DNA of 64,000 nt from an uncultured Thermoanaerobaculia bacterium (GCA_964589625.1 CAZPSH010000002.1:68469-132468); one strand, 5' to 3'. Shown: positions 1 to 51,160, counted from the first letter of the stretch. Numbers and translations: made by a program. Notes: generated by a model not told the origin, from the letters alone.

Positions 1-1173
1 GGGACTCTGGACTTCATGAGCGGGAGGTACGGCCGTTCCCTGGCCTGGCTCGTCCTGGCCACGGCGGCCTCCCTCGGACTCCACGCCCTGCGCCGAGAGG
101 AGGGGCCGGGCCTTCGATGGGCCGCGGCGATTGCAGGCACGGCCTGGCTCGTGGTGGGCCTCGCCGTCTCGCCGCCTTCCCCGGCCCTCGCCGAGATTCG
201 CCACTGGGTCCCCCTGGCGGGGCCCACGCCGGCGCAGAGCGCCTCCTTTCTGGCCCTCGGGGCGGCGGGCCTGCTCCTCCTGTGCCTCCCGCGCTCCTGG
301 GTCTCGAGCCCCTTTCGTGCCGGCCTTCTGGGCGCGGCGCTTCTGGCCCCGGTGCTCTCCTACCACGCGGCCTTCGACGTCTACTGGAACCGCTCCGATC
401 CCCGTCCCTCGAGCGAAGTTCGACAGGCGGCTTCCTTCGGGCGGGTGTGGCTGCCCCATGCGGGGAAATGGAAGTCGTTTCCACCCAATCTCGGCTCCGC
501 CTTCGGCGTGCGGGACGTTCGCCTCTGCGACCCCTTCGTTCCCGAGCGCCTCGCGGCTTTGGAGTGGCCACGCGAGACCCACCAGGACCTGTTTGAAGCG
601 TGGGACCCAGAGAGGGCCCGTTTCGTGGGCGTGGCGGCGGCGCTCCGGCTGGACCCGGTCACGGCCGCAGGCGGACCGGGGATGTCGGTCGTGCCGATCC
701 CCGGCGGCGGGCGGGTCCGATTCGCCCACAGGGCCACCGCCGCCGCCTCCGCCGGGGACGCTCTGGCCGCCGCCCGTGGACCGGAGGGCGAGCCGGGGGC
801 CGTCTGCCTGGAGGGGACGGCCGCCGAAGTAAAAGGAACGGGCGGTTCTTCGGAGGGGGAGGCGGGGATCCGCCTCGAGGAGGAAACGGCCCTCACCCAG
901 AGGTGGACCGTGGCGGCGCCCCTTTCCGGATGGCTGGTGGTGAAGGACCTCTACTGGCCCGGCTGGCGAGCCACGGTGGACGGAAGGGCCGTGCCGATCC
1001 ATGCCGCCGACGGACTCTTCCGGGCCGTGGCCGTGCCCGCCGGGAGCCATGAGGTTCGGTTCTCCTTCCGGCCCGCTTCGTTCCTCATGGGGGTTCTCGT
1101 CACGCTTCTGACGGCCTTCCTCCTGGCATGGGGGGGCCGGACAAGGGGCGGGGGCTGGAGGGCTAAAGGTTGA
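1..1173 (+). CDS. YfhO-like polytopic membrane protein, C-terminal part (gene continues upstream of window); putative GT-C-type glycosyltransferase
   Basis: ORF 16..1173 has no plausible N-terminus; C-terminal motif [42 protein letters not shown] followed by final TM helix is characteristic of YfhO-family C-termini; hydrophobic helices throughout. Confidence 0.55.
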
Positions 1174-2813
1174 TCGGCCTGCGCGGTTTTGACGAATTGT
1201 CCAATAGCGGGACGTCGCCGGGACGCTTTCGCGGGGGCCTCCTGGCCGCCGGCGCCCTTCTCCTGGCTCTCGGCTTCCTCTTGCCCCTGGTCAGCCCGGT
1301 GGTGACCCCGCCCAAGTGGGATGAATACATCATCGTCTACGACGCCCAGAGGGTCCTCGAGGGACAGGTTCCCTACCGCGACTTCTTCAATTTCATCCCC
1401 CCGGGGACGTTTTTCGCCCTCCGATGGGTCTTCGAGGCCTCCGGAGGCGCCTCCATCACCGCCGCCCGGTACGCCTCACTGGTCCTGGTTCTTCTCAACG
1501 CCGGGCTCTTCGCGGCGGCCTTCCGGAGGACCGGCTGGACCCTACCCCAGGCGCTCCTCCTGGCCCTCCTGTACCCGGTGGGCCTGTACCCCTTCTGGCC
1601 CATCGCCTCCCACCATTGGCTGGTGCACCTCTTCTGTGCCGGATTCCTGCTGGCCGCCGCGGCGAGGGCCTCCGGGCCGGGTCTCGGGCGGGCCGTCCTC
1701 CTCGGCCTGGCCGCGGGGTTTGCGGGAAGCGTCCTCCAGACGGAGGCTTTGTACCTCTGCGCCGCGGGGGGGGTGCTCCTCCTGCTGGAAGAAGGGAGCG
1801 AACACCGTCCCAAACGGCTGGCCGCCTTCGGGATGGGGCTCCTTCCCCCCATCGCCCTGACCCTCGGCCCGCTTGCCCTCCGCGGAGCCGGAATGGACTT
1901 CCTCCGGGACGTGATCCTGTGGCCGGCCCGGAACTACAGCCGGCCCGGGAGCGACAACGCCCGTCTCCTCCTCGAGGACCTTCCGATCCGGCTGCAGTCC
2001 ATGTGGACTTCGGGGCTCGATCCGCGGGGTGGAATCCCGGGCCCCTTCGTGGCGGCCTCGGGAACCCTCTTCTACCTCCTGCTTCTCTCGGCGGCGGGGG
2101 CGCTCCTCGCCTCGGCCGGATTCGTTCTCTGGACGACCCTTCACCGCCGGCGGGCGCCCGCGCCCATCGCCCTGGCGGCCTGCCTGGTGACCTTCCTGGC
2201 CTTCGGTTTGTACCTGAAGGGACGTCCGGACTGGCTTCGAATGATCTACCTCCTCCCCCTACTTGGAGGAGTCTGGCTCCTGGCGGCGGGAGGCTCGGGC
2301 GAGGGCGGGGCCCGGACCCGGCGGATCGTGGTCGGGTGGGCGGCGCTCGCCCTCCTGTCGGGGGCGGTCTTTCAGGGGCGGTGGGTCTGGTACCACCGGG
2401 TGGAGGCGTGGGAACTGAGGGACGCGGACCGGCCCATACGGGAGAGCCCCGTAAACCGTTGGCTCCGAGGGGAGGCGGGCCTGGGGCCGGGAGATCGGAT
2501 CGCCGCCTTTCCCGAGGGCGGGGAAGTGTACCTGTACACCTTCCCCGCGGCGGTGCGCTTCACCTTCTTCACCCCCCTCTCCGAGGGGTACCACGATGCG
2601 GCCGACCACGGGCGGGCGGCTCGGGAGATGGAGGAGGCCCGTTGCGCGCTGGTGCTTGTGACCGAGGAGATGGAGAAGGACTACCTGGACCCGGCCTCGG
2701 CCGTGGGCCGGCTTCTTCGGACCCGCTATGAGCGGGAGGGCACCGTGGCCGGAGCGACTATTTACAAACGCTCGATTTCACCTCAACCCGAACCCCCTCG
2801 CCCCGAACCCTGA
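1170..2813 (+). CDS. polytopic integral membrane protein, paralog of 5910..7455 (GT-C-like / putative polyprenyl-P-sugar dependent glycosyltransferase)
   Basis: 547 aa, >10 predicted TM helices; N-terminal periplasmic-loop motif [16 protein letters not shown] matches VPYADFFAIIPPLTLY of the 5910..7455 product; start overlaps upstream stop (ATGA-type coupling). Confidence 0.55.
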
Positions 2814-4119
2814 GCCCCTTGGGCAGGGCCCCGGTGAATGTCACGGGTCGGTCCTGGACTGGTGCGACAAGGGTCGAGTATTGGACCACGCTCACACACT
2901 CCAAGGACACGTTGGCAGGCTCCCTTCGAGAAGGCTCCAGGACGATATCGAGGGAATAGACGGGCTCATCGTCCATGGTCGCAAAAAGGCGATCCAGGAC
3001 CACCGAGTACGCCCGGTTTTCCTCCATGAGAAAGGACGTGGATCGGGGCCCTGCCGTCGCACGCAGACGAAGGGGGGCCCCGGTCCGCACCTCCGCCTTC
3101 AACGTGGCCGCCACAATGGGGAAGCAGGACTCCACACGCCCTCCCGCTGTCGGAAGGGGGGTGTGCAGCCATCCGTTTCGATAGAAGCGGGGCGGATCGT
3201 GCCGCCCCGCGAAGAGAAAATGGCCTGTCTGCCCGTCGCCGAGGATCCACTCCTCCCCAGGACGGAGGCGCTGGGACAGGATCGTATCGAGCACATAACC
3301 CGGATCGTATTGGTAGAAATGGCGGGAGTGGGTCGGTGTAAACGAGTGAAAGGAGGGCATTCGGTGGGCCCATTGGGCGTAATGGGGGGCGGCCACGGCG
3401 TTCGCAAGCAGCGTGGGGTCCCTCGCCAGGTCTTCGGCGGAGCAAATCTCCTTGGGGTCTCCACGGTGGTAGTACACGCCGCAATCGGGGTCGAACATTC
3501 GCCATCTTCCCCTGACAAGGACCTCGCCGACGGAGTGATCGTTTACGTGGACCACCCGGGAGCGAAGGCCCATCCGCCCGCAGAGTCCAGCGAAAACGGA
3601 GGCGGCGTCAGAGCACAGCCCCCCACCGTACACCGCCAAGTGCTTTGGAACATCTCTGATTTCCCTGGTGGGCAGTGTGGAATACCAGTGGGTTCTCGCC
3701 CCGCACAGGAAGGACCAGATCCGGACGGCCCTGGCCAAGGGGTCTGATGGAAGATCGAGGGAGGCCAAAAGAGCGTCCGCCGACTCCCAACGCACGCTCG
3801 TCCGAAACGGCGGAACCCACAGGGGCTCCGAGCCCTCGTTCTTGAGCCGGAGGGTCCTCGTCGTCGGTGTTGGGGCATTTCGATGACGGTAGGCCTCCGC
3901 TTCCATGAAAGCCAGTAGGTCCATCAGCCGCGTGGTGTCTCCGGCCGGCATGAAACCCAGGCCGCGGACTCTGTGGATTTCTTCAATGAGCCGGCGGTCG
4001 GCTTGATTCAAACAAAAGGGCTTCAGGGGTTCCTCGTAGGGCGCGGGACCATTCCGTCGAATGGCGTTGCCCGCGAGCAACAGGGTAAGAATACTCGCGA
4101 GAGACCAGCCCACCATGGC
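2758..4119 (-). CDS. transglutaminase-like cysteine protease domain protein (N-terminal signal/TM anchor)
   Basis: Internal start MVGWSLASILTLLLAGNA (hydrophobic) chosen over upstream Arg-rich leader; core YGGGLCSDAASVFAGLCGRMGLRSRVVHVNDHSVGEVLVRGRWRMFDPD gives Cys...His...Asp transglutaminase-like triad spacing. Confidence 0.6.
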   Translation of the reverse strand, partial: AMVGWSLASILTLLLAGNAIRRNGPAPYEEPLKPFCLNQADRRLIEEIHRVRGLGFMPAGDTTRLMDLLAFMEAEAYRHRNAPTPTTRTLRLKNEGSEPLWVPPFRTSVRWESADALLASLDLPSDPLARAVRIWSFLCGARTHWYSTLPTREIRDVPKHLAVYGGGLCSDAASVFAGLCGRMGLRSRVVHVNDHSVGEVLVRGRWRMFDPDCGVYYHRGDPKEICSAEDLARDPTLLANAVAAPHYAQWAHRMPSFHSFTPTHSRHFYQYDPGYVLDTILSQRLRPGEEWILGDGQTGHFLFAGRHDPPRFYRNGWLHTPLPTAGGRVESCFPIVAATLKAEVRTGAPLRLRATAGPRSTSFLMEENRAYSVVLDRLFATMDDEPVYSLDIVLEPSRREPANVSLECVSVVQYSTLVAPVQDRPVTFTGALPKGLRVRGEGVRVEVKSSVCK

Positions 4120-4256
4120 GAAGTTTTGCCGCACGCTCCCTCCCGTTTTCCTTTTACCACGAGGGAGGTTCGGAAAGGGATATCGCAAAGCCTGAGGGCG
4201 GCTGGGGGCCCAGCCGGCGCCGTTCTTCCTCCTCTCCGTTGCGATAACGGGCCACA

Positions 4257-4286
4257 AAGGCAAAAGGCCCCCATTGCCGGGGGCCT
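4257..4286 (-). terminator. rho-independent terminator downstream of pilA
   Basis: Minus strand reads GGCCCCCGGCAATGGGGGCC (7-bp GC stem, 6-nt loop) followed by TTTTGCCTTT immediately 3' of pilin stop. Confidence 0.6.
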
Positions 4287-4311
4287 CTCGCGGAAAGAAC
4301 CGTGTTCAGGA

Positions 4312-4812
4312 TCAGTCGCACTTCTTCTGCTTGCCTTCGGGCTTCATGACGAAGGCGTCGTTGACCCAGACGATGTCGTTCTCGAAGCAGTTCGTATTCA
4401 CCACGGACAGGTTGACGACGGTGGTCCAGCCCGAACCATCCTCGGCCGTGTCCTTGCCGAGGGAGCGCACGCCGAAGTCCACGCCGCCGGAGGCAGAGGC
4501 ATACTCGTAGGTCTTGTTCCAGGGGTCCGGGGTGGGGATGGACTTGATGTAGTCAGGAGCCAGGTCGCCGTTGACGCCGCCCGTGGCGTTGGCGATGACG
4601 GCAAACGTGGTGCTGCCTATGGGATAGATCTGGGCGTCGGTTGCGTAGGACTGGGCCGCCGTGGCGATGGTGCGGACCTCACCCATGGCCCTCTTCTGCT
4701 TGGCGCGCTGGATGGCGCTCAGCAGGTTCGGGATGGCGATGGCGGCGATGATGCCGATGATCGCCACGACGATGAGCAGCTCGATGAGGGTAAAACCTTT
4801 CTGGTTCTTCAA
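4312..4812 (-). CDS. pilA: type IV major pilin (PilA-like, type IVa prepilin)
   Basis: TTG start preceded by GGAGG (5-nt spacer); N-terminus MKNQKGFTLIELLIVVAIIGIIAAIAIPNLL = class III leader + G|FTLIEL prepilin peptidase site + conserved hydrophobic helix; C-terminal Cys...Cys pair (D-region); longer ORF upstream of TTG is Arg/Cys-rich junk. Confidence 0.85.
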   Translation of the reverse strand: MKNQKGFTLIELLIVVAIIGIIAAIAIPNLLSAIQRAKQKRAMGEVRTIATAAQSYATDAQIYPIGSTTFAVIANATGGVNGDLAPDYIKSIPTPDPWNKTYEYASASGGVDFGVRSLGKDTAEDGSGWTTVVNLSVVNTNCFENDIVWVNDAFVMKPEGKQKKCD

Positions 4813-4841
4813 TGGACACCTCCTTTCCGGCATTCCATGTT

Positions 4842-4858
4842 TGCAATCGTAATGCCAA
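4842..4858 (-). promoter_or_regulatory. sigma-54 (-24/-12) promoter for pilA
   Basis: Minus strand TTGGCATTACGATTGCA = TGGCAT-N5-TTGCA, near-perfect match to TGGCAC-N5-TTGCA consensus, ~30 nt upstream of pilA TTG start. Confidence 0.65.
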
Positions 4859-4919
4859 CATATAGCCCTTGATTTTCCAGGTGTCAACCCCCCTCGTGTG
4901 CCCGCCGTTGTCCGGAGGC

Positions 4920-4938
4920 GGTGACGGACGTTGTCACC
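4920..4938 (-). promoter_or_regulatory. inverted repeat GGTGAC-N7-GTCACC, candidate enhancer-binding-protein (PilR-like) upstream activating site
   Basis: Perfect 6-bp inverted repeat ~65-80 bp upstream of the sigma-54 promoter; overlaps stop of methyltransferase gene. Confidence 0.3.
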
Positions 4939-5929
4939 CGGCCCCGTTTCGACGATCCGCCTTCCTGGCCACGACGTTCCAGGAATTCCGGTTGTGCCAG
5001 CGGAACCGCACCTCTTCGGGCGCCAAGGCGCCGAACCAGCCCTCCAGGGTCGGGCGGGAAAGGTACAGGGCGATGGGAGGGCAGAGGTGGTCCAGGACGA
5101 TGTGCTCCACCTCCCGCAGGGGGAAGCGCGAGATGTAGCCGAGGTACGCCGAATAGGGGAGCCAGGAAACGCTCCGGGCCCCCCGGCCCGTGGCCGGGCC
5201 GTAGAGGAGTTTGAGGGCCCCGTAGAGCACGGCCGTGAGGGGGAGGAGGAGGGGCCTCAAGACCTTGGTGGGGATCCGGGAGGTGATGCCCTTTCGGATC
5301 GGGTCCACGAGGTGGACGATCCAGCCGTTGCCCTCCCGGGCGTACACCCAGAGGCAAAGCGTCCCCCCGGGACGCAGAACCCGCCAGAGGTCGCGCAGGC
5401 CCGCCTCGGGGTCCCTCAGGTGGTGCAGAACGCCGAGGCAGACCACCACGTCCACGGAGGCATCCGGCAACGGAAGGCGATGGATGTCCCCCCGCAGGCA
5501 GGAAACCGCCGGAAAGGCCTTGGTGTACTCGGCGGCGAGAAAGACGGCCTCCGAGAGGTCCAAGGCAAAGAGGCGCCGCACGCCGTACCCCGCCATGTGA
5601 AAGGAATGGCGGCCTTTTCCGCAGCCGGCCTCCAGGACCGTCTGGTCCCGGAAGGCCCCGGCATCGAGGGGGGCGATCCAGTCCAGGAACTGGCGCTCCT
5701 GGTAGGGGGCGAGGTATTCGTGGGAGGTCCAGGAGGCGCCGAACTGGTCGACGGTCTCCCGGGTCTCCAGGGCCGTTTCCTTCGGGGCCACGTCGAGGAC
5801 CCCGTTGAGGAGAGGGAAACGGCGCCCGCAGGAGACGCACCGGACCTCCTCCGGCACGGCGCCGGCCTCGAGGGGGGTGGGTGGACCGCAGTCCGGGCAG
5901 CACAGGGTCTCAGGGGGCGGAAGGGCCAT
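4934..5929 (-). CDS. class I SAM-dependent methyltransferase with N-terminal Zn-ribbon (Trm112-like CxxC...CxxC)
   Basis: N-term CCPDCGPP...CVSCGRRF zinc ribbon; motif I LEAGCGKGRHS, motif post-I ALDLSE, DVVVCLGVLHHL; overlaps upstream gene by 20 nt. Confidence 0.75.
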   Translation of the reverse strand: MALPPPETLCCPDCGPPTPLEAGAVPEEVRCVSCGRRFPLLNGVLDVAPKETALETRETVDQFGASWTSHEYLAPYQERQFLDWIAPLDAGAFRDQTVLEAGCGKGRHSFHMAGYGVRRLFALDLSEAVFLAAEYTKAFPAVSCLRGDIHRLPLPDASVDVVVCLGVLHHLRDPEAGLRDLWRVLRPGGTLCLWVYAREGNGWIVHLVDPIRKGITSRIPTKVLRPLLLPLTAVLYGALKLLYGPATGRGARSVSWLPYSAYLGYISRFPLREVEHIVLDHLCPPIALYLSRPTLEGWFGALAPEEVRFRWHNRNSWNVVARKADRRNGAG

Positions 5930-7455
5930 GACCGTTCCTTTCGAGGACCACGCCGTAGGGAGTGTCGCTCAGAAAGCGGTACTCCTCGGCCAGGAGGGTC
6001 GCGAGGGGAGAGGGCTCCTCCCGGAAGGAGGCCGCCTCCTCGCGCCTCAGGACGATGTAGCGGACCCGGTGCTCCCGCGCGAAGGTGGCCAGCACCTCGT
6101 ACTCCCATGGGGAATTGTACCGCGCCGACGGGGGAAGCACCCAATCCATGGGAGGAGCCACGGGCGCCCAATAGAAGTAGAGCGTGCTCCCGTCCCGGGC
6201 GAGGTACAGGACCGGCAGGTTCCCTTCGCGGACCCCGGGGAGCGCGTCCACGAGGGCGGGGACGCTGTACTTCTTGAGCATGCCGTCCACGGCCCACACG
6301 TCGAGGGCGTTGGGCGGGGCGGAGACCCACGCGAGGGGCCACCGCAGGAGCCCCACGGCGAGGACCGCGCACAGCCAGACCTGGAGGAGGAGGGGGCGCA
6401 GGCGCTCCTCCTTCCAATCCACCGCGGCGGCGGCGAACAGGAGGAGGATGGGGCTGAGCAAGACGAGGTGGGTCCAGTCCGGACGCCCCTTCAGGAAGAG
6501 GGCGAAGGTGAGGGCCAGGGCCGCCGAGGAGTAGGCCCAACGGCGCGTCAACACGCCCAGCCTCCACTCGGGGGCGAGGGCCGGCCAAAGGAGGGCCAGG
6601 AGGGGAAGGGCCATGGCCACGGCCAGTGTCAACAGGGGGGCTGCGGAGGAGGGGGTCCAAACGTCGGGAACGGCGGTGCGGACGATCCGTTCCATGAACT
6701 CGAAGGGGTTGACGTTATTGAACCCCCCGGTCTGCTTGTAGAAGCGGGCGGGCCACTCCACGAGGTCGAACCAAGCCCACCGCAGGGCGCCCGACAGGGC
6801 CAGGAGCCCCCCGAAGAGCGCGAGGGGCAGGGCGGTGCCGCCCAGTGCGGCGGCGAGGGACCTCCGCCGGTCCCTGCCCGGGGCTCCGGAGGTCAGGAGC
6901 CTCATCGCGAGGAGGGCCGAAAAGAGGGCGCCGTCGGTCTGGAGGCAGAGGCCCGAGAGCCCGCAGAGGGCTCCCGCGGCCACCGCCCGGCGCCGGGACA
7001 CGTCGCCCTCCGGGCACAGGAAGAGGGCCAGGAGTCCGAATTCCAGGGCGAACCAGTGGTGGCTCGGGAGGGGCCAGAAGGGAAAGAAGGCCGAGGGGAA
7101 GGAGAGGGCTCCCAGGAAGGCCCACCGCGGGGGCACGGCGGCCCGCAGGAGGAGTCCGTACTGGGTGAGGGCGATGAGGAGGATCCAGGCCAGGGTGAGG
7201 AGGCGGAGGGCGCCGAGGGAGGCTCCGGCGGCCTTGAAGAAGGTCCCGACGCCGTAGAGGGTCAGGGGGGGAATGATGGCAAAGAAATCCGCGTAGGGCA
7301 CACGGCCGAGGGAGACCTGCTTGGCGGCCCAGGCCAGCGTCGTCTCGTCGGCCTGGACCGGGAAATAGCCGGCCGAAAGGGCCGTCTCCAGGATCAGGAA
7401 GGAGGCGGCAAGGAGCAGGGCGCCCAGGAGCGCGGGTTCGCGCGTCCGGATCATT
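5910..7455 (-). CDS. polytopic integral membrane protein (GT-C-like), paralog of 1170..2813
   Basis: Real start MIRTREPALLGALLLAASFLIL at 7455 (ATG overlaps TGA of upstream gene: ATGA); the 1042-aa ORF 5910..9038 is frame-extended through the neighbouring gene (different frame); many TM helices, conserved VPYADFFAIIPP loop. Confidence 0.6.
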
Positions 7456-9187
7456 CCCGGCCCTCCAGTTCCGCCAAGGCCTTGTCCAGCACGTCCCGGC
7501 GGCGGAAGTACGGGTCCTCCGCGATCTTGCGCAAGATGTCGGCCCGAAGGGCCCCGGGGTCCAGGTCTCCTCGCTTCGCCGCCCGCATGAGGTGGGGGAG
7601 GTCGTCGGGCCGGAGCACGCGGTACTCGAATCGGTCGATCAGGGCCTCGAACCGGGGCTCCCTCTTCAGGAGCACCATCCCGTAGTTTCCGAAGTGCACG
7701 AGGGCCCACTCCCCTTGAGGGAAGAGCAGGGCCGTGGGTCCCCGCAGGGGGCTGCCCCGCTGGCCCGCCCGCTCCTTCAGCAGGAAGCCGGGGTGGGGGT
7801 AGAGGATCACATCGAAGGGGTACCGGGCCAGGAATTCCCGGTACTCGGCCAGGGTGTTGTGGGCCTTCCAGTAGGCCTGAAGGTCCTTGGCGAAGGGGTA
7901 GTAGCGCCCGTCCATGAAGATCCGGCACCGGGGGGCGATGGCCCAATCCAGGTAACCCCCCGCCACGTACTCGTTGAAGAGGTTGCCGGTGACGCCGTGC
8001 TGGTTGAGGAACCTCACTTCCTGGACCGGGTACTTCTCCGAGAGGTTCCACTCCGAGGGCATGGCCCCCGCAAAGAAGACCGCCGCCCACAGGACGGAGG
8101 CGAAGGCCGCCGACCAGGCCCACCGCTCGAGGGCCGGCCTGCGGAGAAGGCGCCTCAGGCCGTCGGCTCCCCAGGGGGCCAGCGCGATCACCGTGAAGGC
8201 GGCGTAGCGGGCCCAATACCCGCCGAGGAAGGCCTGGGAGGCGGCGGGAAGGACCACGGACCACCTCGCCTCCCGCCATCGGGCCAGAAGCGAGAAGAGG
8301 ACCAGAAGAAGGGCCAGGAGAAAGAGGGCGCCGTAGCCCTTGAAGGGCGTGCGGCCCCACTCCTGGATCTGGACCAGGGTCTCGTCGGCGAACCCGATGA
8401 GGGACTTCACGGGGAACCAGGGGATGCGCCAAGTGTAGGGATTCAGGAAGAGGGCCAGGGTGGGCGCAAGCCCCGTCCAGACAAGCCCGCCGAAGTAGCG
8501 CCACGTGAGGGTGCGCTCCCGCGCGGCGTCGAAGACCTCGCCGGCGAGCCGGGCGCCCAGGAGGGCCATTCCGAAGGCCCACCCGCCGTGGAACTGGGTC
8601 CAGGCCCAGAGGAGGGCCGTCGCGACGATCCAGAATCGGCCCGTGCGCGGGGGATCGGGACGCCAGCGCAGGAGGGCCTCCACGAGGAGGGCCATGAAGA
8701 GGAGGGAGAAGAGGTCCGGCCGGAACCGGATCCGGCCCTTGTACGCCAGCATCATGGGAAGGAGGTACAGGGCGAAGAGGGCGGCGTTTCCCCCCTGAAG
8801 GCGTACGGTCCGGTACACGAGGAGGAGGACGGCGGCGCCGAAGAGAGCCGTGAAGAGGCTGAGGCCCCGGTCCCCCAAGGCCTTCCAGAGGGGGTACGCG
8901 AGCGCGTGGAAGGCCCACTCCGTGTCCTCCCACTCGGCGCCGTAAGCGGTGAAAGAGAAGGTCTCGGTGTAAACGAGGCGCCCCGTCTCCCAGATTTCGC
9001 GGCCCACCGCCAGGTGCCAGAAGGTGTCGGGATCCCACAGGGGCTGGTAACAGGCCACCGCGGCCATGACGAGCACCGCCGCGAGCAGGACGTACTCCCG
9101 TCCGCGGGATCCCTCCAGGGGAGGCAGGGGAGGAAGCACCCTCGGAAGATGGAACGGCCGGGGCCTCGGGGACCCTCCCATGGTCAT
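7451..9187 (-). CDS. polytopic integral membrane protein (third GT-C/YfhO-like membrane protein of island)
   Basis: 578-aa ORF with >10 hydrophobic helices (WHLAVGREIWETGRLVYTETFSF..., multiple W/F-rich TMs) and soluble C-terminal domain; stop overlaps next start (ATGA). Confidence 0.55.
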   Translation of the reverse strand: MTMGGSPRPRPFHLPRVLPPLPPLEGSRGREYVLLAAVLVMAAVACYQPLWDPDTFWHLAVGREIWETGRLVYTETFSFTAYGAEWEDTEWAFHALAYPLWKALGDRGLSLFTALFGAAVLLLVYRTVRLQGGNAALFALYLLPMMLAYKGRIRFRPDLFSLLFMALLVEALLRWRPDPPRTGRFWIVATALLWAWTQFHGGWAFGMALLGARLAGEVFDAARERTLTWRYFGGLVWTGLAPTLALFLNPYTWRIPWFPVKSLIGFADETLVQIQEWGRTPFKGYGALFLLALLLVLFSLLARWREARWSVVLPAASQAFLGGYWARYAAFTVIALAPWGADGLRRLLRRPALERWAWSAAFASVLWAAVFFAGAMPSEWNLSEKYPVQEVRFLNQHGVTGNLFNEYVAGGYLDWAIAPRCRIFMDGRYYPFAKDLQAYWKAHNTLAEYREFLARYPFDVILYPHPGFLLKERAGQRGSPLRGPTALLFPQGEWALVHFGNYGMVLLKREPRFEALIDRFEYRVLRPDDLPHLMRAAKRGDLDPGALRADILRKIAEDPYFRRRDVLDKALAELEGRE

Positions 9188-9295
9188 TCCTCCCCCCTAC
9201 TGGGCCCGCGTGTCATCGGGCGGCTCCCGGCACGAGGTTCCGCCCCAAGCGCCCGCCGGGAGAGATGCCTTGTCCGTCGGGCCTCCCGCCGGCCG

Positions 9296-11152
9296 TCACA
9301 GGGGCCTCCCGCGGCCGTTCCACCAGTGGAGGAAGCACAGGAGGGTCCAGAGGGGCTTGCGGTGGTCCGCGCGCCGGGCGAGGTGCTCTTTCCACAGCCG
9401 CCTGGCCTCGGCCGGGACGAGGAAGGGCGCGGAACCCAGGACGCTCTCCGAAAGAAGATCCTCGGCAAGCGGCTTCAGCGGGCCCGTGAGCCATCGGGCC
9501 AGCGGGATGCCGAAGCCCTTCTTGGGGCGTTCGAAATGGCTGGGGGGGAGGTCCCGCTCGAAGGCGGCCCGGAGGACCACCTTCCCGCGCGTGCCCTTCA
9601 GTTTCCAGGCGGGCGGCAGGGAGAAGGCCAGGCGGACCACGTGGGGGTCCAGGAGGGGGACGCGGGCCTCGAGGGAGGCCAGCATGCTCGCCCGGTCCAC
9701 CTTGGCGAGGATGTCCTCCAGCAGGTACGTATGGAGGTCCAGCCACTGGGCCGAGGTCGAGGGGTCGGAGGCGGGCGGGGAGGGGATCCAGGACCATGCC
9801 TTCTTCGAGTGCACGACGGGTGCACCGAACAGGCGCTCCAGGCCCTCCGGCGTCCAGGCTCCCATCCAGAGGTGGTGCCTCAGGGGCATGGGATGCTCCG
9901 CCCCGTCTCGGAACTTCCTGAGCTTGTAAGCGAAGGTGAGGTTGGCGTGGGAGACCGGAAGGAGCCAGTCCGCGGCGTCCAGGGCCGCCGTCCGGAGAAA
10001 CCGCGGAGCGCGCCGGTAGGCGCGGTGGCGTCGGTGGACCCAGTAGGTGGGATATCCCGCGAAGAGTTCGTCTCCCCCGTCTCCGCCCAGGGCTACCGTC
10101 ACGCGCTCGCGGGCGAAGCGCGACAGGAGGGCCGTCGGAAAGAGGGAGGGGTCGGCGAAGGGTTCGTCCTGGCGGCCGAGGACGCGGGGGACCTCGTCCA
10201 GGAGTTCCGCCTCCGAAAAGAGGTGCTCGTGGTGCGAGCATCCGAGATGCCCGGCCACGCGCCGCGCGTGGGCGCTCTCGTCGAAGGAGGGGTCTTCAAA
10301 GCCGATGGCAAAGGACTCGACGCGCCCTCCGGCGGCCGCCATGGCGGCCGTCACGATGCTGGAGTCCACCCCGCCGCTGAGGAAGACGCCCAGCGGGACG
10401 TCGGAGATGAGCTGCCCCTTCACGCTCCGCAGAACGGCCTCCCGCACGCGGGCGACGGCCTCGTCAAAGGAAGGCGGAGCCTGGGGGATCCTCCATTCCC
10501 AGTAAGGTTCGGTTTGGACGCCGCGGGCGTCCGCCCAGAGGAGCCAACCGGGGAGAAGCTTGCGGACCCCGCGGAGGATGGAAAGGGGGGCGGGTACGTA
10601 CTCCAAGGTCAGATAGAGTCGGAGGGCCTCCATGTCGAGCCCGCCCGGGCACGCGGGATGGGCCTCCAGGGCCTTCACCTCGGAACCGAAGAGGAGCCCG
10701 TCCGCCGTGGGGGCGTAGTACAGGGGCTTGACGCCCAGGGGGTCGCGGCAGAGCAGGAGCCCGCCTTTGGCGCGGTCGTAGAGCGCGAAGGCGAAGATCC
10801 CATTCAGCCGCGAGGCGAAGCGGGGTCCCTCCTCCTCGTAGAGGTGGACGAGGACCTCCGTATCCGATCGGGTGGAGAAGCGGTGGCCCCGTGCCTCGAG
10901 GTCCTCCCGGAGTGCGAGGTGGTTGTAAATCTCGCCGTTGTAAACGACGGCCACCGAGCGGTCCTCGTTGTAGAGGGGCTGGGCGCCCGTCTCGAGGTCG
11001 AGGATGGCCAGCCGGCGGTGGCCCAGCCCCACTCCGCCCTCGAGGAAGTACCCCTCCCCGTCGGGCCCCCGGTGGGCCAGGGTCTCGGTCATGGACTTCA
11101 GGAGGTCGCGGTCGGCGCGCCCCGGTCCGAGGAACCCGGCGATTCCGCACAT
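9296..11152 (-). CDS. asnB: asparagine synthetase (glutamine-hydrolysing)-family amidotransferase (AsnB/WbpS-like)
   Basis: Start MCGIAGFLG (catalytic Cys2 of class II glutamine amidotransferase); PP-loop SGGVDSS; 618 aa; GGAG 6 nt upstream; N-terminal part of the 814-aa ORF is Arg/Pro junk. Confidence 0.85.
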   Translation of the reverse strand: MCGIAGFLGPGRADRDLLKSMTETLAHRGPDGEGYFLEGGVGLGHRRLAILDLETGAQPLYNEDRSVAVVYNGEIYNHLALREDLEARGHRFSTRSDTEVLVHLYEEEGPRFASRLNGIFAFALYDRAKGGLLLCRDPLGVKPLYYAPTADGLLFGSEVKALEAHPACPGGLDMEALRLYLTLEYVPAPLSILRGVRKLLPGWLLWADARGVQTEPYWEWRIPQAPPSFDEAVARVREAVLRSVKGQLISDVPLGVFLSGGVDSSIVTAAMAAAGGRVESFAIGFEDPSFDESAHARRVAGHLGCSHHEHLFSEAELLDEVPRVLGRQDEPFADPSLFPTALLSRFARERVTVALGGDGGDELFAGYPTYWVHRRHRAYRRAPRFLRTAALDAADWLLPVSHANLTFAYKLRKFRDGAEHPMPLRHHLWMGAWTPEGLERLFGAPVVHSKKAWSWIPSPPASDPSTSAQWLDLHTYLLEDILAKVDRASMLASLEARVPLLDPHVVRLAFSLPPAWKLKGTRGKVVLRAAFERDLPPSHFERPKKGFGIPLARWLTGPLKPLAEDLLSESVLGSAPFLVPAEARRLWKEHLARRADHRKPLWTLLCFLHWWNGRGRPL

Positions 11153-12117
11153 GGAGACTCCAGCACCCGGGAGATCACGTAGGGGGTGCTCTTCAGGCTG
11201 GCGAAGTAAACGCGGATGAGAAGTTCCCCCAGAAGACCCATCATGACGAGTTGCAGGCCCACGAGGGCGGAGAAGATGGCGATGAGAAAGACCGGGTTCC
11301 GGTGGACCCACACGTCCGCGGCGATCTTTTCCCAGAGGGTGAAGAGGAAGAGGAGGCCCGACAGGAAAAGGAGGCCGAAGCCCGTACCCCCGAAGGCGTA
11401 GATGGGCTTGGTGAGGAAGGAGCCCATGAACTTGATGGTCATGAGGTCGAGGATGACCTTGAGGGTGCGGCCCAGACCGTACTTGCTCTTTCCCGTGGCC
11501 CTGGGATGGTGGGTCACCTCCACTTCGGCCACCCTGGCCCCCTGCCAGGAGGCCAGGACGGGAATGAAGCGGTGCATCTCGCCGATGAGGTGGGTGGGCT
11601 GGAGGACCTCCCTCCGGTAGGCCTTGAGCGTACACCCGTAGTCGTGGAGGTGGACGCCCGAGATGAGGGAGATGACCCGGTTGGCCAATTTGGATGGAAG
11701 GATGCGCGTGAGGAAGGGGTCTTTGCGGTGGCGCCTCCATCCGCTGGCCACGTCGTATCCCTCGTCCAGCTTGGCGAGGAGCCTAGGGATGTCGCCCGGG
11801 TCGTTCTGGAGGTCTCCGTCCAGGGGAATGAGGGTGGCGGCGCGCGCATGCTCGATGGCCGCCGCGAGAGCCGCGGTCTGCCCCGAGTTCCGCCGGAAGA
11901 AGACGACCCGCAGTCCCTTGCGCTCCCGCGCGGCCTTCTCGAGGAGCCTGGGCGTCGCGTCCGTGGAGCCGTCGTCCACCAGCACCACCTCGTAGGTCTT
12001 GTGCAGGCTCTCCATGACCGATTCGATGCGGTCGAGGAGGGGCTCCAGGTTCCCCTCTTCGTTGAAGAGGGGGATCAGGAGGCTCAACTCCGGTGCGGGC
12101 GCCGTTTCGCTCTTCAT
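11098..12117 (-). CDS. GT2 polyprenyl-phosphate sugar synthase (GtrB/ArnC/DPM1-like) with two C-terminal TM helices
   Basis: Start MKSETAP; LSLLIPLFNEEGNL, VVLVDDGSTD, DGDLQNDP (DxD-type) motifs; C-terminal hydrophobic helices typical of GtrB family; 3' end overlaps asnB start by 55 nt. Confidence 0.8.
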   Translation of the reverse strand: MKSETAPAPELSLLIPLFNEEGNLEPLLDRIESVMESLHKTYEVVLVDDGSTDATPRLLEKAARERKGLRVVFFRRNSGQTAALAAAIEHARAATLIPLDGDLQNDPGDIPRLLAKLDEGYDVASGWRRHRKDPFLTRILPSKLANRVISLISGVHLHDYGCTLKAYRREVLQPTHLIGEMHRFIPVLASWQGARVAEVEVTHHPRATGKSKYGLGRTLKVILDLMTIKFMGSFLTKPIYAFGGTGFGLLFLSGLLFLFTLWEKIAADVWVHRNPVFLIAIFSALVGLQLVMMGLLGELLIRVYFASLKSTPYVISRVLESPCAESPGSSDRGAPTATS

Positions 12118-12170
12118 TCGCCAGAAGCTCCCTTCGATCTCCCTGTCCTGAAATCCAGCTCCGCGTATCC

Positions 12171-12205
12171 AAATCCGAAATCCCAAATCCCAAATCCCAA
12201 ATCCC
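12171..12205. repeat. tandem heptamer repeat (AAATCCG/AAATCCC)x5 in pilR-GT2 intergenic region
   Basis: Plus strand aaatccg aaatccc aaatccc aaatccc aaatccc directly read; an additional gaaatcc ~20 nt upstream. Confidence 0.8.
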
Positions 12206-12209
12206 CTCC

Positions 12210-13592
12210 TCACGCCTCCCTGGCCTGCAACCCGTACTTCTTCACGAAGTACCTCATGGACCGGAAGGTGATCCCGAGGCGGGCGGCGGCCCGCGTCATG
12301 ATCCCGCCTTCGAGTTCCAGGGCCCGCTGCAGGTAGGCCGCGCGGATCCCCTCCAGGGTATCCGTCAGCGAGAACCCCTCGTCGGGAATCTGGACCCCGG
12401 CGAGATCGGGCAGGGGGCGGGCCCCGAGGAGAGGGTCGGGCAGGTGGCGAAGGTCGATGTGGTCCCCATCGCACAGGGCCATGGCCCTCTCCATGCAATT
12501 CTCGAGTTCCCGCACGTTTCCCGGCCAGGGGTAATTCTCCATCCGCCTCAGGGCCTCGGCGCTCAGGGAGGGTATTTCCCGGCCCATGAGGCGGGCGTAT
12601 TTTTCGAGGAAGTGCCGGGCGAGGAGGGGGATGTCCTCCCGTCGCTCCCTCAAGGGGGGGAGCGCGACCGTGATGACGTTGATCCTGTAGTAGAGGTCCT
12701 CGCGAAAACGTTTTTCCTGGATGAGCCGGGGGATGTCCTGGTTGGTGGCGGCCACCACCCGCACGTCCGTCGGGTGCTCCTCCTCGCCCCCCACGGGACG
12801 GACGGTCCGCTCCTGGAGGGCTCGCAGGAGCTTGACCTGCATGGCCGGCGACATCTCGGCGATTTCGTCCAGGAAAAGGGTTCCACCCTGGGCGGTGTCG
12901 AAAAGCCCTTTCTTCGAGGCGTGGGCCCCGGTGAAGGCGCCCTTCACGTGGCCGAAGAGCTCGCTCTCGAGGAGCGTCTCGGGGATCCCCCCGCAATTCA
13001 CGGGGACGAAGGGGCGGCGCGAACGGGGGGAGCGCTGGTGCAGGGTCCTCGCCACGAGCTCCTTTCCGGTGCCGCTCTCCCCTTGGATCAAGATCGTGCT
13101 GGGGGTGGGGGCCACCCTCTCGACGAGGGCGAAGACCGCCTTCATCCGGGAATTCGCCGCCACGAGGCCCCCGAACTGTTCCTTCCGGGCCAGCTCCTCC
13201 CTCAGGAGGACGTTCTCCTCGGCCAAACGCCGCTTCTCGAAGGCGTGGCGGACGATGTTGCTCAGTTCCTCCACCTGGAAGGGCTTGGTGATGTAATCGA
13301 AGGCGCCCAGCTTGAGGGCCTCGATGGCGGACTCCGTGCTGGAATAGGCCGTCATGAGGATGACCTCGGTGGGGGCCTCCTCCTGGCGGATGCGCTTCAG
13401 GAGTTCGAGTCCCGACAACCCCGGCATCCGGATATCGGACAGGACCAACTCGAAGGGCGAGTGGGCCAGGGCCCTAAGGGCCTCCTCGGCGCTCGCCGCC
13501 GTGACCACCCCGTAGCCTTCCTCGCGAAAGAGGATTTCGAGCATCTTCCGCATGGAGGCTTCGTCGTCCACGATGAGGATGCGCTCAGGCAT
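12210..13592 (-). CDS. pilR: sigma-54-dependent response regulator (NtrC family), PilR-like
   Basis: Start MPERILIVDDE (receiver); AAA+ sigma-54 activator motifs GESGTGKE, GAFTGA, ESELFGH; C-terminal Fis-type HTH; start overlaps pilS stop by 8 nt. Confidence 0.85.
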   Translation of the reverse strand: MPERILIVDDEASMRKMLEILFREEGYGVVTAASAEEALRALAHSPFELVLSDIRMPGLSGLELLKRIRQEEAPTEVILMTAYSSTESAIEALKLGAFDYITKPFQVEELSNIVRHAFEKRRLAEENVLLREELARKEQFGGLVAANSRMKAVFALVERVAPTPSTILIQGESGTGKELVARTLHQRSPRSRRPFVPVNCGGIPETLLESELFGHVKGAFTGAHASKKGLFDTAQGGTLFLDEIAEMSPAMQVKLLRALQERTVRPVGGEEEHPTDVRVVAATNQDIPRLIQEKRFREDLYYRINVITVALPPLRERREDIPLLARHFLEKYARLMGREIPSLSAEALRRMENYPWPGNVRELENCMERAMALCDGDHIDLRHLPDPLLGARPLPDLAGVQIPDEGFSLTDTLEGIRAAYLQRALELEGGIMTRAAARLGITFRSMRYFVKKYGLQAREA

Positions 13593-15210
13593 GGGGGGCC
13601 TCCGCGGGGAGGATGAGGCGGCACTGGGTCCCTCTGCCGTAGGCGCTGCGGATGACGACCCGGCCTTCGTGCTCCTGGGCCACCTGGTGAACCACGGTGA
13701 GGCCGAGGCCCAGGCCCTTCCGGAAGCCGTGCCGGAACGGGTGGAAGTAAGACTGGATCTCGTCCTGCCGCATCCCCACCCCGTCGTCCTCCACATCCAG
13801 TATAGCGTTCGGGCCCTCGAGGGTTAAGGCGACCCGGATTCGGCCCTTCCCGGGCACGGCTTTGCGGGCGTTTTGGAGGAGGTTCCAGAGGGCCTGACGG
13901 AGGCGGTCCGGATCGCCCGCGATGGGGACGGGGTCCTCGGGAAGGGCCGCCTCCACCTCCAGGGACCGGGCGCACTCGGGGTCGCTTCTGAACAGCGTGA
14001 CCACGTCCGCCGTCAGGGAGCGCAGGTCCAGGGACACTTTTTGAAGGGGAGGCGGCTTCACGTAGCGCATGAAGTTGTTCAGGATCTCCGAGAGGCGGCG
14101 GCTTTCCTCCTCGATGATCTTGAAAAGGTCCCCCTCCTGGCTCCCCGCGGCGTGCCGTTTGGCGAGCATCTGGGCGGCTCCCGAAATGCTCCCCAGCGGG
14201 TTCTTGATCTCGTGGGCGATGTCCGCCGCCATGGCCCCCACCGCCAGGAGCCGGTCCTTGAGAGCCAACTCCTCCCGAAGGCCCACCACCTCCGTCTGGT
14301 CCCTCACGAGGACGAGGAACCCCACAGGGGAAGCGCCCGAGCGGAGGGGGGCCACGACGAGCCCCAGATGGCGGCCCTCGGGAAGGGCGACCTCCACCTC
14401 CCGCTCGCCGAATCCGTCCTCCGGAAAGGGCGACGGACCTTCGTATCCCACGTCCCGGAGGCGGTCGGCCAGCGTCCAGCCCGCGGGCAGGGTCTCGCCG
14501 AGCAGGCGCATCCCGGCCGGGTTGGAGAAGGTGACCGTTCCCTTTGCGTCCGTCGTGATCACGCCCCAGGTCAGGGAGGAGACGAGCTGCTCCGTGAACA
14601 TCCTCGCCCGCCTCAGGTCCAACTCGGCTTCGCCCAGGGCGCGGCGCGCGGTCTCGAAGCGTCCCGACACGAGCCCCATCAACGCCGCCACGAGGTAGAA
14701 GCCCACGTAGTGGGCCACCAGGGCGTGGAAGGCGGACTCCGCCGTGGGGGCGTCGAAGGGGAATTCCACGCCCATCTTGGTAGGATCGATCCACCCGTAG
14801 AGGAGGGAGACGCAGAGAAGCCCGAAAAGAAGTGCGTCGATGGAGGCCACCACGAAGGCCCCCTTTCGCTTGAGAAGGTATCCCCCTACGACGATGAGGA
14901 TCTGGTACAGAAAGGTGAAGAGGCTCGCGAACCCGCCGGTGAGAAAGCACAGCAGGGTCACACCGAGGATGTCCCCAAGGATTTGCAGGTAGAGGAAGAG
15001 GGGCCTTGCGCGGAGCGAGCGGACCGTGAGGAAGAGGACCAGGTGGAGGAGGTTCAGGGCGAGGATGAAGGCGATGAGGTAGTAGAAGGGGCGCAGAAAG
15101 GACTCGCCGCCCACGAAGGCCTGCACGGCGAGCGCGCTGAGGAAGAAGGTGAAGACCACGACCATCCGGTATACCATCAGCCGGACGGCTTGGTGCTCTA
15201 GGGGCTCCAT
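13585..15210 (-). CDS. pilS: sensor histidine kinase, PilS-like (multi-TM N-domain, PAS, HisKA, HATPase)
   Basis: 6 N-terminal hydrophobic helices; H-box AHEIKNPLGSI; G-boxes DDGVGM, GLGLGL; genomic position between pilC and pilR. Confidence 0.8.
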   Translation of the reverse strand: MEPLEHQAVRLMVYRMVVVFTFFLSALAVQAFVGGESFLRPFYYLIAFILALNLLHLVLFLTVRSLRARPLFLYLQILGDILGVTLLCFLTGGFASLFTFLYQILIVVGGYLLKRKGAFVVASIDALLFGLLCVSLLYGWIDPTKMGVEFPFDAPTAESAFHALVAHYVGFYLVAALMGLVSGRFETARRALGEAELDLRRARMFTEQLVSSLTWGVITTDAKGTVTFSNPAGMRLLGETLPAGWTLADRLRDVGYEGPSPFPEDGFGEREVEVALPEGRHLGLVVAPLRSGASPVGFLVLVRDQTEVVGLREELALKDRLLAVGAMAADIAHEIKNPLGSISGAAQMLAKRHAAGSQEGDLFKIIEEESRRLSEILNNFMRYVKPPPLQKVSLDLRSLTADVVTLFRSDPECARSLEVEAALPEDPVPIAGDPDRLRQALWNLLQNARKAVPGKGRIRVALTLEGPNAILDVEDDGVGMRQDEIQSYFHPFRHGFRKGLGLGLTVVHQVAQEHEGRVVIRSAYGRGTQCRLILPAEAPHA

Positions 15211-19427: not shown

Positions 19428-19471
19428 TTCGCTCCCCGGTCCCCCTTTGGAAAACGTAGTGTACCACTTGA

Positions 19472-19502
19472 AGTGTAGTTTGCAGCTTGCTGCAAAGTCA
19501 AG
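19472..19502 (-). promoter_or_regulatory. candidate sigma-70 promoter (TTGACT-N18-TACACT) upstream of pilB with embedded palindrome TTGCAGC-AA-GCTGCAA
   Basis: Read on minus strand; 45-75 nt upstream of pilB start. Confidence 0.3.
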
Positions 19503-19524
19503 GGAATGACCTTCTATACCCATC

Positions 19525-19608
19525 GAGGGATTGGGGTGCCCTCGAGCCGAAGGGGAGAGGGCGCCGAGGGTGGGGTGAGGCTCCACGGGCTTTGCCCGTG
19601 GAGCGGGG
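19525..19608. repeat. GC-rich ~85-nt dispersed repeat, copy A (contains 12-bp perfect hairpin GGCTCCACGGGC-TTT-GCCCGTGGAGC)
   Basis: ~90% identical to reverse complement of ~26385..26480; translated junk ORFs on both copies share RDWGALEP...GWGEAP...PVERG. Confidence 0.7.
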
Positions 19609-44357: not shown

Positions 44358-44439
44358 GGCCCCAGGGTACCCCAAGGCCGCGAATCGCGGAAGCGAGGGG
44401 GTCCCCGATCCCGAGAGTGAAATGGGACGGTGCATTGTC

Positions 44440-50876: not shown

Positions 50877-51160
50877 GGCAGCGCCTCGTGCAGTTCGTCC
50901 ACGATGCCGACGATGGCGGCGTCGCAGGGAACGATGGCGGGAAGAAAGGCGTAGGAGGCCTCCCGCTGGCGGACGTACAGCACCACCTCGCCGGCGCCCG
51001 CCCCCGCGGCGTCCAAGGCCACGAAGGGCCTCTCCCGGCCGTTCAGCGGCTCCACCAGGAGGAGTTTGTGCCCCTCGAGGCGGGCGTCCTTCATCGTCGA
51101 CACGAGGTTTCCGATCACTTTCCCGACGTTCACCGTCCCGCGCCTTTCGACCCGCCCCAA
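50873..51160 (-). CDS. BMC vertex protein (BMC-P), second copy (start may be internal GTG)
   Basis: VGKVIGNLVSTMKDARLEGHKLLLVEPL...GAGEVVLYV EutN-like. Confidence 0.7.
   Translation of the reverse strand: MGRVERRGTVNVGKVIGNLVSTMKDARLEGHKLLLVEPLNGRERPFVALDAAGAGAGEVVLYVRQREASYAFLPAIVPCDAAIVGIVDELHEALP

Follow-up and report, generated by a model that had tools for sequence, protein, structure and literature searches.

A stretch of 64,000 nucleotides (nt) from an uncultured Thermoanaerobaculia bacterium (GCA_964589625.1, CAZPSH010000002.1:68469-132468; in the following, the window; GC content about 68%) contains a type IV pilus (T4P) cluster, in which the genes pilB, pilT, pilC, pilS and pilR are separated from the pilin gene pilA by an island of putative glycosylation genes that continues beyond pilA. 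With a probability somewhat better than even, roughly 55%, this island is an extracytoplasmic glycosylation system of the polyprenyl-phosphate-sugar/GT-C ("three-component") type, employing glycosyltransferases of fold class C (GT-C) and dedicated to the type IV pilus, the likeliest acceptor being PilA. The pilin would be favored as acceptor because of the invariable embedding of the island in pilus operons, because of the shape of a membrane protein of 578 amino acids (aa), which resembles oligosaccharyltransferases (OST), protein mannosyltransferases (PMT) and DPY19, and because of an independent association of its family with pil genes in another phylum. An initial annotation, made from the sequence alone, had suggested a two-step lipid-linked glycosylation system at this place; that architecture is now strongly supported.

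Five genes separate pilR from the sigma-54-driven pilin gene, encoding a family 2 glycosyltransferase (GT2), an AsnB-type amidotransferase, the 578-aa and a 514-aa membrane protein, and a methyltransferase that uses S-adenosylmethionine (SAM). The genes pilR to pilA share one strand, and neighbors either overlap by 4-55 nt or are about 100 nt apart; past pilA two further membrane proteins, one of 547 aa and one partial and YfhO-like, are encoded on the plus strand, convergent on the minus-strand block. Real genes were selected by their third-position GC content. The features of the region are the following:

17712..19586, minus strand: pilB (T2SSE and MshEN domains)
16557..17699, minus strand: pilT (T2SSE domain)
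15325..16527, minus strand: pilC (T2SSF domain)
13585..15210, minus strand: sensor histidine kinase PilS (6TM_PilS, HisKA and HATPase_c domains)
12210..13592, minus strand: sigma-54-dependent response regulator PilR (Response_reg, Sigma54_activat and HTH_8 domains)
12169..12205, minus strand: heptamer tandem repeat (GGGATTT)x5.3 in the pilR-GT2 spacer
11098..12117, minus strand: putative GT2 polyprenyl-phosphate glycosyltransferase of the ArnC/GtrB/PgfS type, 339 aa (PF00535, 1e-31)
9296..11152, minus strand: AsnB-family glutamine-dependent amidotransferase, 618 aa (Asn_synthase, 6e-96; GATase_7, 2.7e-45)
7451..9187, minus strand: predicted GT-C fold glycosyltransferase, OST/PMT-like, 578 aa (predicted structure; D52-P-D54)
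5910..7454, minus strand: predicted GT-C fold glycosyltransferase, divergent PMT_2-like, 514 aa (predicted structure; D36-E37)
4934..5929, minus strand: SAM-dependent methyltransferase with zinc ribbon, 331 aa (Methyltransf_11, 4.8e-23)
4842..4857, minus strand: sigma-54 (-24/-12) promoter of pilA, TGGCATTACGATTGCA (consensus match)
4312..4812, minus strand: major type IV pilin PilA, precursor of 166 aa (N_methyl, 9e-11; T2SSG, 2.4e-13)
4262..4285, minus strand: intrinsic terminator of pilA, GGCCCCC-ggcaat-GGGGGCC followed by TTTT, as read from the sequence
2758..4116, minus strand: transglutaminase-core protein, 452 aa (PF01841, 6.5e-5)
1170..2813, plus strand: polytopic membrane protein, 547 aa, paralogue of the 514-aa protein (BLASTP)
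1..1173, plus strand: YfhO-like polytopic membrane protein, C-terminal 390 aa, GT-C candidate (N-terminus outside the window)

Every gene named in the initial annotation was recovered at or within one base of the position given there; the 514-aa gene occupies 5910..7454, with 7454 in place of the annotated 7455. The order pilB-T-C-S-R upstream of the island was confirmed by the domains of the proteins. Two things had been missed, namely the 452-aa transglutaminase gene and the continuation of the island past the window start, where a DUF6798 protein and a second YfhO protein are known from 93%-identical relatives. On the other side, past pilB, what remains of the window is taken up by unrelated genes for metabolism and housekeeping, with no more glycan genes among them. 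The closest relatives are uncultured Acidobacteriota metagenome-assembled genomes (MAGs) with 93-95% protein identity; remoter ones are labelled Thermoanaerobaculia or Thermoanaerobaculum aquaticum.

The assignment of the membrane proteins is based chiefly on predicted structures. Matches in Pfam or NCBIfam were not obtained for the 578-, 514- and 547-aa proteins, and neither single-sequence nor profile searches of the PDB yielded a sequence match for the 578- and 514-aa proteins; the 547-aa protein likewise had none in the PDB. Homologues of both families were collected and aligned, and the structures of the 578- and 514-aa proteins were predicted, with mean predicted local distance difference test (pLDDT) values of 90.8 and 82.4 and predicted template modelling (pTM) scores of 0.89 and 0.84, respectively. 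Both models have the GT-C fold together with an acidic loop motif, which lies between transmembrane (TM) helix 1 and the first loop helix. In the 578-aa family this motif is D52-P53-D54, conserved, like W57 and H58, to at least 90%; in the 514/547-aa family it is D36-E37, invariant and situated in the first periplasmic loop. The catalytic carboxylates of GT-C enzymes sit right after TM helix 1, at the place of these putatively catalytic motifs.

The nearest structural neighbors of the 578-aa model are GT-C enzymes which modify proteins (STT3, PglB, AglB, PMT and DPY19); Foldseek ranked STT3, AglB and DPY19 at the top with TM-scores of 0.5-0.6, and isolated C-terminal globular domains of AglB and STT3 were matched as well. 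In the model, 11 TM helices lie between an N-terminus rich in arginine and a C-terminal alpha/beta domain, which should be periplasmic, given the N-terminus and the number of helices. Fold comparison of the 514-aa model gave Pmt4 20.7, AglB 18.3, ALG3 18.1, GPI-MT-I 17.7, ALG6 17.5 and ArnT 16.9. The assignment extends by paralogy to the 547-aa protein, a likely GT-C enzyme that is 28% identical to the 514-aa protein over 507 aa (BLASTP, E 6e-27); two of the four membrane proteins had been called clear paralogs in the initial annotation. Both proteins contain invariant D-E, P-Y-x-D-F-F and W-P-x-x-S-H-H motifs, and the 547-aa protein has about 11 hydrophobic segments with the DE motif after TM helix 1. 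The fold and acidic loop on which the initial annotation had staked its interpretation were thus found in the two models and, through paralogy, are expected in the third protein.

The family names given initially to these proteins fared less well. The label YfhO-like was wrong for three of the four membrane proteins and holds for the fourth only in about its last 50 residues: the partial open reading frame (ORF) 1..1173 matches Pfam YfhO (PF09586; 3.6e-10, 39.3 bits, cut-off 28.5) with residues 318-368, corresponding to profile positions 785-835 of 835, and this tail also matches NCBIfam PgfM1/PgfM2. Its complete orthologue in the related locus L004 (loci are numbered L in the following) has 697 aa, is 78% identical and matches YfhO only in the last 66 residues. 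The proposed searches with PF00535 and the Asn_synthase family recovered the GT2 and the amidotransferase, whereas PMT_2 (PF13231) and YfhO did not match the 578-, 514- or 547-aa proteins. Four of 16 members of the 514/547-aa family match PMT_2 weakly (best E 2.2e-5), and a protein of L002 with such a weak match is 33-36% identical to the 514/547-aa proteins over about 200 aa (36% to the 547-aa protein); the family would appear to be a very divergent relative of PMT_2 at best. The 578- and 514-aa groups were taken as separate families because of an hhalign probability of 0.2. Wzy_C (PF04932), the family of PglL/PilO(TfpO)-type ligases, was matched by no island protein in the Pfam and NCBIfam searches. 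The island thus contains two GT-C families which are novel in sequence, one of them very large: among metagenome clusters at 50% identity, 29,133 representatives belong to the 578-aa family at E<=1e-3 and 4,214 at E<=1e-30. A function at the level of the GT-C fold can therewith be given to a very large unannotated family of membrane proteins, whatever the acceptor may be.

The GT2 matches ArnC (1.4e-54, residues 4-321 against 3-316), GtrB (1e-37) and dolichol-phosphate mannose synthase (DPMS; 3e-17) in the PDB over its full length, and two hydrophobic helices at 241-296 form a C-terminal TM hairpin. Its identification as a polyprenyl-phosphate glycosyltransferase of the ArnC/GtrB/DPMS type with a C-terminal membrane anchor is strongly supported by these similarities. 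NCBIfam matches to ArnC (2.5e-59) and PgfS (7e-41) were both below the cut-off; an ArnC orthologue was ruled out, with 200.9 bits against an equivalog cut-off of 529, and none of the Arn pathway genes arnA, arnB, arnD, arnT, arnE and arnF was found in the window. The amidotransferase begins with MCGIAG, including the catalytic Met-Cys, and its gene overlaps the 3' end of the GT2 gene by 55 nt, in agreement with the translational overlap noted initially; its best NCBIfam match is the XrtA/PEP-CTERM amidotransferase TIGR03108 (2e-162, below the cut-off of that family). The methyltransferase carries the zinc ribbon which the initial annotation had seen, with four cysteines in the N-terminal pattern CPxC...CxxC kept in all orthologues, and its best PDB match is, weakly, a D-glucose O-methyltransferase (5e-13). 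AsnB paralogues known from glycan loci turn uronic acids into uronamides. Because of this chemistry and of the match of the methyltransferase, a methylated and/or amidated sugar on undecaprenyl phosphate (Und-P) is proposed, and both enzymes would act on the sugar.

A total of 85 loci with genes of the 578-aa family was screened against all proteins of the window. In all 17 Acidobacteriota loci with enough upstream sequence, the 578-aa gene is immediately preceded by pilR, the GT2 gene and the AsnB gene, and in most cases pilB, pilT, pilC and pilS come before these; since this order recurs in 17 of 17 related loci, the arrangement of the island is no chance adjacency. Identities to the window in Acidobacteriota loci were 33-93% for the 578-aa protein, 61-97% for the GT2 and 58-91% for AsnB, the latter two being much better conserved than the GT-C proteins. 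One to three copies of the 578-aa type and up to four of the 514/547-aa type were present per locus, and YfhO-like proteins were common. In about half of the loci pilA is the next gene past the island; the window, L003 (with two pilins), L004-L007, L008, L013 and the T. aquaticum MAG (L022) have a prepilin gene there. The co-occurrence which the initial annotation had wished to see examined in relatives was confirmed, as close orthologues of the 578-aa gene were found, among the loci screened, only inside pilBTCSR loci. A seemingly pil-less exception, L019, was rejected; it is a fragment from the same MAG as L012 and, being 95% identical to part of that locus, represents a strain-variant contig and not an independent locus.

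Distant members of the 578-aa family (25-26% identity) are encoded in a Myxococcota MAG between pilR and a pilHI-like pair of ATP-binding cassette (ABC) genes plus pilA, there with a weak C-terminal tetratricopeptide repeat (TPR), and in a "delta proteobacterium" MAG near pilBTCS. Pil genes were not among the neighbors of further distant members in Chloroflexota, Limnocylindria, Terrabacter and Saccharimonadales. Of two next-tier members, P0132 is located among housekeeping genes and is not pil-linked, and P0136 is on a contig of only 4.6 kb. Since other members of the family are not linked to pil genes, the association is a property of one orthologous clade, with at least one independent recruitment.

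PilA is a type IVa major pilin, as judged by its class III signal peptide, its sigma-54/PilSR-type gene and its neighbors pilB, pilT and pilC; the presence of pilT argues for a retractile pilus. Its gene starts with TTG at 4812 behind an AAGGAGG ribosome-binding site, the leader being MKNQKG|FTLIEL as in relatives. The promoter TGGCAT-N5-TTGCA is the sole match to TGGCAY-N5-TTGCW in the 64 kb with one mismatch allowed, which bears out the sigma-54-driven pilin of the initial annotation, and after the stop codon a perfect 7-bp GC hairpin is followed by TTTT. The globular part is GspG-like (T2SSG 2.4e-13; 81 bits against the GspG cut-off of 88.85) and has a C-terminal Cys...Cys loop. Pilins of the clade (window, L003, L008, L013, L022) share a GspG-like domain with a variable center and a conserved C-terminal motif, C-x-x-x-D-I-V-W-x-x-x-x-F-x-x-x-P-x-G-K/R-Q-x-K/N-C, presumably a disulfide loop.

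What sugar is used, how it is tailored, in which order the GT-C enzymes act, which protein accepts the sugar and what purpose the system serves are inferred as follows. At the cytoplasmic face the GT2 would transfer one sugar from a nucleotide sugar to undecaprenyl phosphate, and the translationally coupled AsnB protein and the zinc-ribbon methyltransferase could tailor this sugar or its nucleotide precursor, most likely by conversion of a uronic acid to a uronamide and by O-methylation. A flippase, GtrA-like in relatives and not among the genes of the window, would carry the lipid-linked sugar across the membrane. In the periplasm, the OST/PMT-like 578-aa protein would place the first sugar on the membrane-anchored pilin before assembly, and the 514-aa, 547-aa and YfhO-like enzymes could attach further sugars, or act at other sites or on other pilins. 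Such decoration would perhaps shield the pilus from pilus-specific phages and proteases.

Several observations weigh against a system dedicated to the pilin. As the initial annotation had already remarked, a GtrA-like flippase is not obvious: none is encoded in the 64 kb, as judged by a Pfam scan and by tblastn with GtrA proteins of relatives, which do carry them. In six lineages (L001, L002/L014, L012, L016, L018 and L028) the 7-10 kb downstream of the island gave no prepilin gene, which ties the island to pilSR rather than strictly to pilA; the wider 578-aa family of about 29,000 representatives is mostly not pil-linked. The classical substrates of ArnC/ArnT-type and YfhO-type systems are lipid A and teichoic acids rather than proteins. 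The 578-aa protein lacks a Pfam STT3 match and the motifs WWDYG, WWD and W-x-D-x-G. PilA itself shows no conspicuous tract of Ser and Thr, which number 9 and 13 among its 160 residues, and its three N-x-S/T sequons are unconserved in relatives and near chance expectation. N-glycosylation, which the STT3-like fold might suggest, was dropped in view of these unconserved sequons, of the missing D/E-x-N-x-S/T and of the missing WWDYG.

The same lipid-phosphate-sugar/GT-C machinery could act on a non-protein acceptor, such as lipid A or the core of lipopolysaccharide (LPS), a side chain of O-antigen or exopolysaccharide (EPS), or a lipoglycan, comparable to ArnT, to Gtr or to the mycobacterial lipoarabinomannan/arabinan that is built by several periplasmic GT-C enzymes; its place beside pilSR would then be due to co-regulation or ancestry, for example with a polysaccharide bound by pili. 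We regard this as unlikely, without being far-fetched. It would fit with ArnC as the best solved-structure match of the GT2, with the established glycosylation of teichoic acids by YfhO-type enzymes, with an EPS-locus amidotransferase as the best NCBIfam match of AsnB, with a number of GT-C enzymes suited to the stepwise building of a polymer, and with the absence of pilA near the island in about half of the lineages; multi-GT-C three-component glycan systems are documented (PMC11194591). However, an initiating phosphoglycosyltransferase, Wzx/Wzy, an ABC exporter, a ligase and genes of the arnA/B/D type are all missing from the island, members of the orthologous clade were seen only inside pilBTCSR loci, and genes of the 578-aa family have become associated with pil loci independently in Myxococcota.

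A general O-glycosylation of many exported or membrane proteins in the periplasm, with the pilin as one target or as none, is distinctly less probable and overlaps the preferred pilus-dedicated system rather than opposing it. It would resemble streptococcal Pgf or GtrB/PgtC2, the actinobacterial PMT, or the broad-spectrum PglL of Neisseria. The match of the GT2 to PgfS at 7e-41 and that of the YfhO-like tail to PgfM1/M2 are in its favor, several GT-C enzymes could mean several classes of acceptors, and protein glycosylation by GtrB plus GT-C enzymes, where known, reaches many targets (PMC12041528); yet a housekeeping system would not be expected to be wedged between pilR and pilA across such divergence, nor its GT-C complement to differ between strains that are 90% identical. 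Hardly any credit is left for the notion that unrelated genes came to lie by chance between pil genes. Three of the four membrane proteins are indeed without family annotation, but the GT-C fold and the gene order kept in 17 of 17 loci effectively refute it, the same-strand genes overlap, and a lipid-phosphate-sugar synthase with a GT-C enzyme, plus GtrA in relatives, follows a well-known scheme (PMC11194591).

The pilus-dedicated system preferred here can be compared with several known systems. TfpW is a GT-C enzyme encoded beside pilA which glycosylates the pilin from a polyprenyl-phosphate sugar with a GtrA-like partner; its family is described by a DDX motif in loop 1, YX6PFX7P in loop 4, C-terminal TPRs and a gene position right after pilA (doi 10.1101/2020.04.19.049825). 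The arabinosylation of group IV pilin in Pseudomonas aeruginosa comprises TfpW, TfpX and PsPA7_6245-6251, with 6247 as the GtrA-like protein, and, like the island, has its GT-C gene within the pilin locus; a monosaccharide linked to polyprenyl phosphate serves as donor, made in the cytoplasm and flipped by the GtrA-like protein. In contrast to the one gene just downstream of pilA, the island has four to seven GT-C genes, located between pilR and pilA and past pilA; its donor synthase belongs to the ArnC/GtrB class of GT2 enzymes, whereas the TfpW system uses a phosphoribosyl pyrophosphate (PRPP)-dependent decaprenylphosphoryl-5-phosphoribose (DPPR) synthase with DprE1/E2, and an amidotransferase and a methyltransferase are added. 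The 578-aa model agrees in layout with TfpW as described, and remoter members of the 578-aa family carry C-terminal TPRs like TfpW; no island protein has them. Membership in the TfpW family, judged by its description and not by a TfpW sequence, was rejected for the island enzymes for want of TPRs, for DPD or DE instead of DDX, and for gene positions upstream of pilA or on the other strand, while the functional analogy to TfpW remains.

Systems of GtrB plus GT-C enzymes glycosylate streptococcal surface proteins; in Pgf (PgfS/PgfM1/PgfE/PgfM2) and GtrB/PgtC2 a GtrB-type GT2 makes an Und-P-sugar, from which one or two YfhO-type GT-C enzymes modify Ser/Thr of extracytoplasmic proteins (PMC12041528, PMC5856776). 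The scores of the island GT2 with PgfS and of the YfhO-like tail with PgfM1/M2 are far below the equivalog cut-offs. Pgf and PgtC2 are Gram-positive, not pilus-linked, and without amidotransferase or methyltransferase, and the two best-characterized GT-C enzymes of the island are not of the YfhO family. The three-component scheme comprises a lipid-phosphate-sugar synthase, a flippase and a GT-C enzyme, and multi-GT-C variants with flavin adenine dinucleotide (FAD) oxidoreductases and epimerases have been noted (PMC11194591). GtrA/GtrB/GtrC, ArnC/ArnEF/ArnT and the pentofuranose systems (Kelly et al. 2024) follow the same logic, and relatives of the island carry oxidoreductase and epimerase genes plus GtrA; these systems modify LPS or other glycans, whereas the island lies within a T4P operon, with an OST/PMT-like enzyme as its lead GT-C. 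The likeness of the 578-aa protein to STT3/PglB/AglB and PMT/DPY19 is structural only, with 7-13% sequence identity and no Pfam STT3 or PMT match, and the island GT2 points to a single sugar on a monophosphate as donor instead of an oligosaccharide on pyrophosphate. Full-text searches of the literature turned up neither a locus of this kind in Acidobacteria nor a pilus-embedded system with several GT-C enzymes, in line with the claim of novelty in the initial annotation; in its working the island follows known systems.

Glycosylation of pilins governs pilus-phage interactions, surface properties and antigenicity. To our knowledge, insight into it is limited to a few proteobacterial pathogens, with PglL/TfpO-type ligases and the single GT-C enzyme TfpW. 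If the pilus-dedicated system is real, pilin glycosylation by GT-C enzymes would extend to a different and environmentally abundant phylum, in a far more elaborate multi-GT-C form with amidation and methylation. A more specific version, possible although the odds are against it, is that the 578-aa family represents an unrecognized OST/PMT-like class of bacterial protein glycosyltransferases which, with three to six more GT-C enzymes, builds an amidated and methylated oligosaccharide stepwise on the pilin in the periplasm of Thermoanaerobaculia-like Acidobacteria, from a single Und-P-monosaccharide donor; this would be a periplasmic multi-enzyme assembly line for a protein glycan without a described Gram-negative counterpart. 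The conserved genomic context allows the donor and the acceptor of the 578-aa family to be tested. Since a homologous locus, with 578-like, methyltransferase and pilA genes, is present in the MAG of T. aquaticum, which is a cultured species, work at the bench may be possible.

The gene content of the island varies among relatives. The 452-aa ORF, just after the pilA terminator, contains a transglutaminase core (Cys-His-Asp) preceded by a signal or TM segment at the N-terminus; among 5.8 billion clusters its only homologue was an identical protein on a 2.2-kb Joint Genome Institute (JGI) contig. The 1.5-kb segment with this ORF has a lower local GC content (0.61-0.65) and is absent from the 90-93% identical loci L004 and L007; the gene is a strain-specific ORFan insertion. 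L004 (7963-9975), L005 and L006 encode, between AsnB and the 578-aa gene, a Pfam-less membrane protein of 670 aa, whose presence was inferred for L007; the window lacks this 1.9-kb gene, with a clean indel point at about 9218-9221. Such differences in gene content between relatives of 90-93% identity are typical of surface-glycan loci under diversifying selection. Islands of relatives contain in addition GtrA flippases, a second GT2, PMT_2-like proteins, an epimerase dependent on nicotinamide adenine dinucleotide (NAD), and an "amine-oxidase-like" FAD protein, all of them missing from the window; by tblastn, the amine-oxidase-like, DUF6798 and 670-aa proteins of relatives had, like GtrA, no counterpart in the 64 kb. 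In more distant relatives, a module of the epimerase, the 536-aa FAD protein and GtrA, in some cases joined by a PMT_2-like GT-C enzyme and a second GT2, is found at L001:9823-17241, L002:15425-20630, L016:14824-16434 and L028:15289-18340. It resembles the epimerization of lipid-linked sugars by the oxidase/reductase pair DprE1/DprE2, an analogy which suggests a second donor sugar in those lineages.

The heptamer repeat (GGGATTT)x5.3 fills the spacer between the stop of pilR and the start of the GT2 gene; its sense strand consists of four G3 tracts spaced by ATTT, which is a canonical G-quadruplex motif. Copies of (GGGATTT)n were also found at L001:2298-2325, L028:6908-6935, L010:3234-3247 and 6576-6603, and L024:9918-9945. 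Among divergent relatives the repeat sits in the pilR-GT2 spacer, and in two others it is between AsnB and the first GT-C gene; L003 has different repeats of 7-8 nt in the pilR-GT2 spacer. The repeat may be a slipped-strand (phase-variable) or G-quadruplex regulatory element of the island. Two more heptamer arrays, CCCCAAT x3.6 and CGAAATC x4.3, are present in a short intergenic region at 51155..51225, so that heptamer repeats may be a genome-wide intergenic feature of the lineage.

Elsewhere in the window, an ORF of about 1,620 aa at 57353..62221 (plus strand; third-position GC 0.95) contains at least six PKD domains and probably encodes a surface or adhesin-type protein. Another system of pilus or secretion type is indicated for the genome by a second PilB/MshE-like ATPase (T2SSE and MshEN domains; 31503..33437, minus strand) and a second sigma-54 response regulator (42978..44435, minus strand). 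The selenocysteine synthase gene selA is located at 29094..30704 (minus strand), and thus the organism probably uses selenoproteins.

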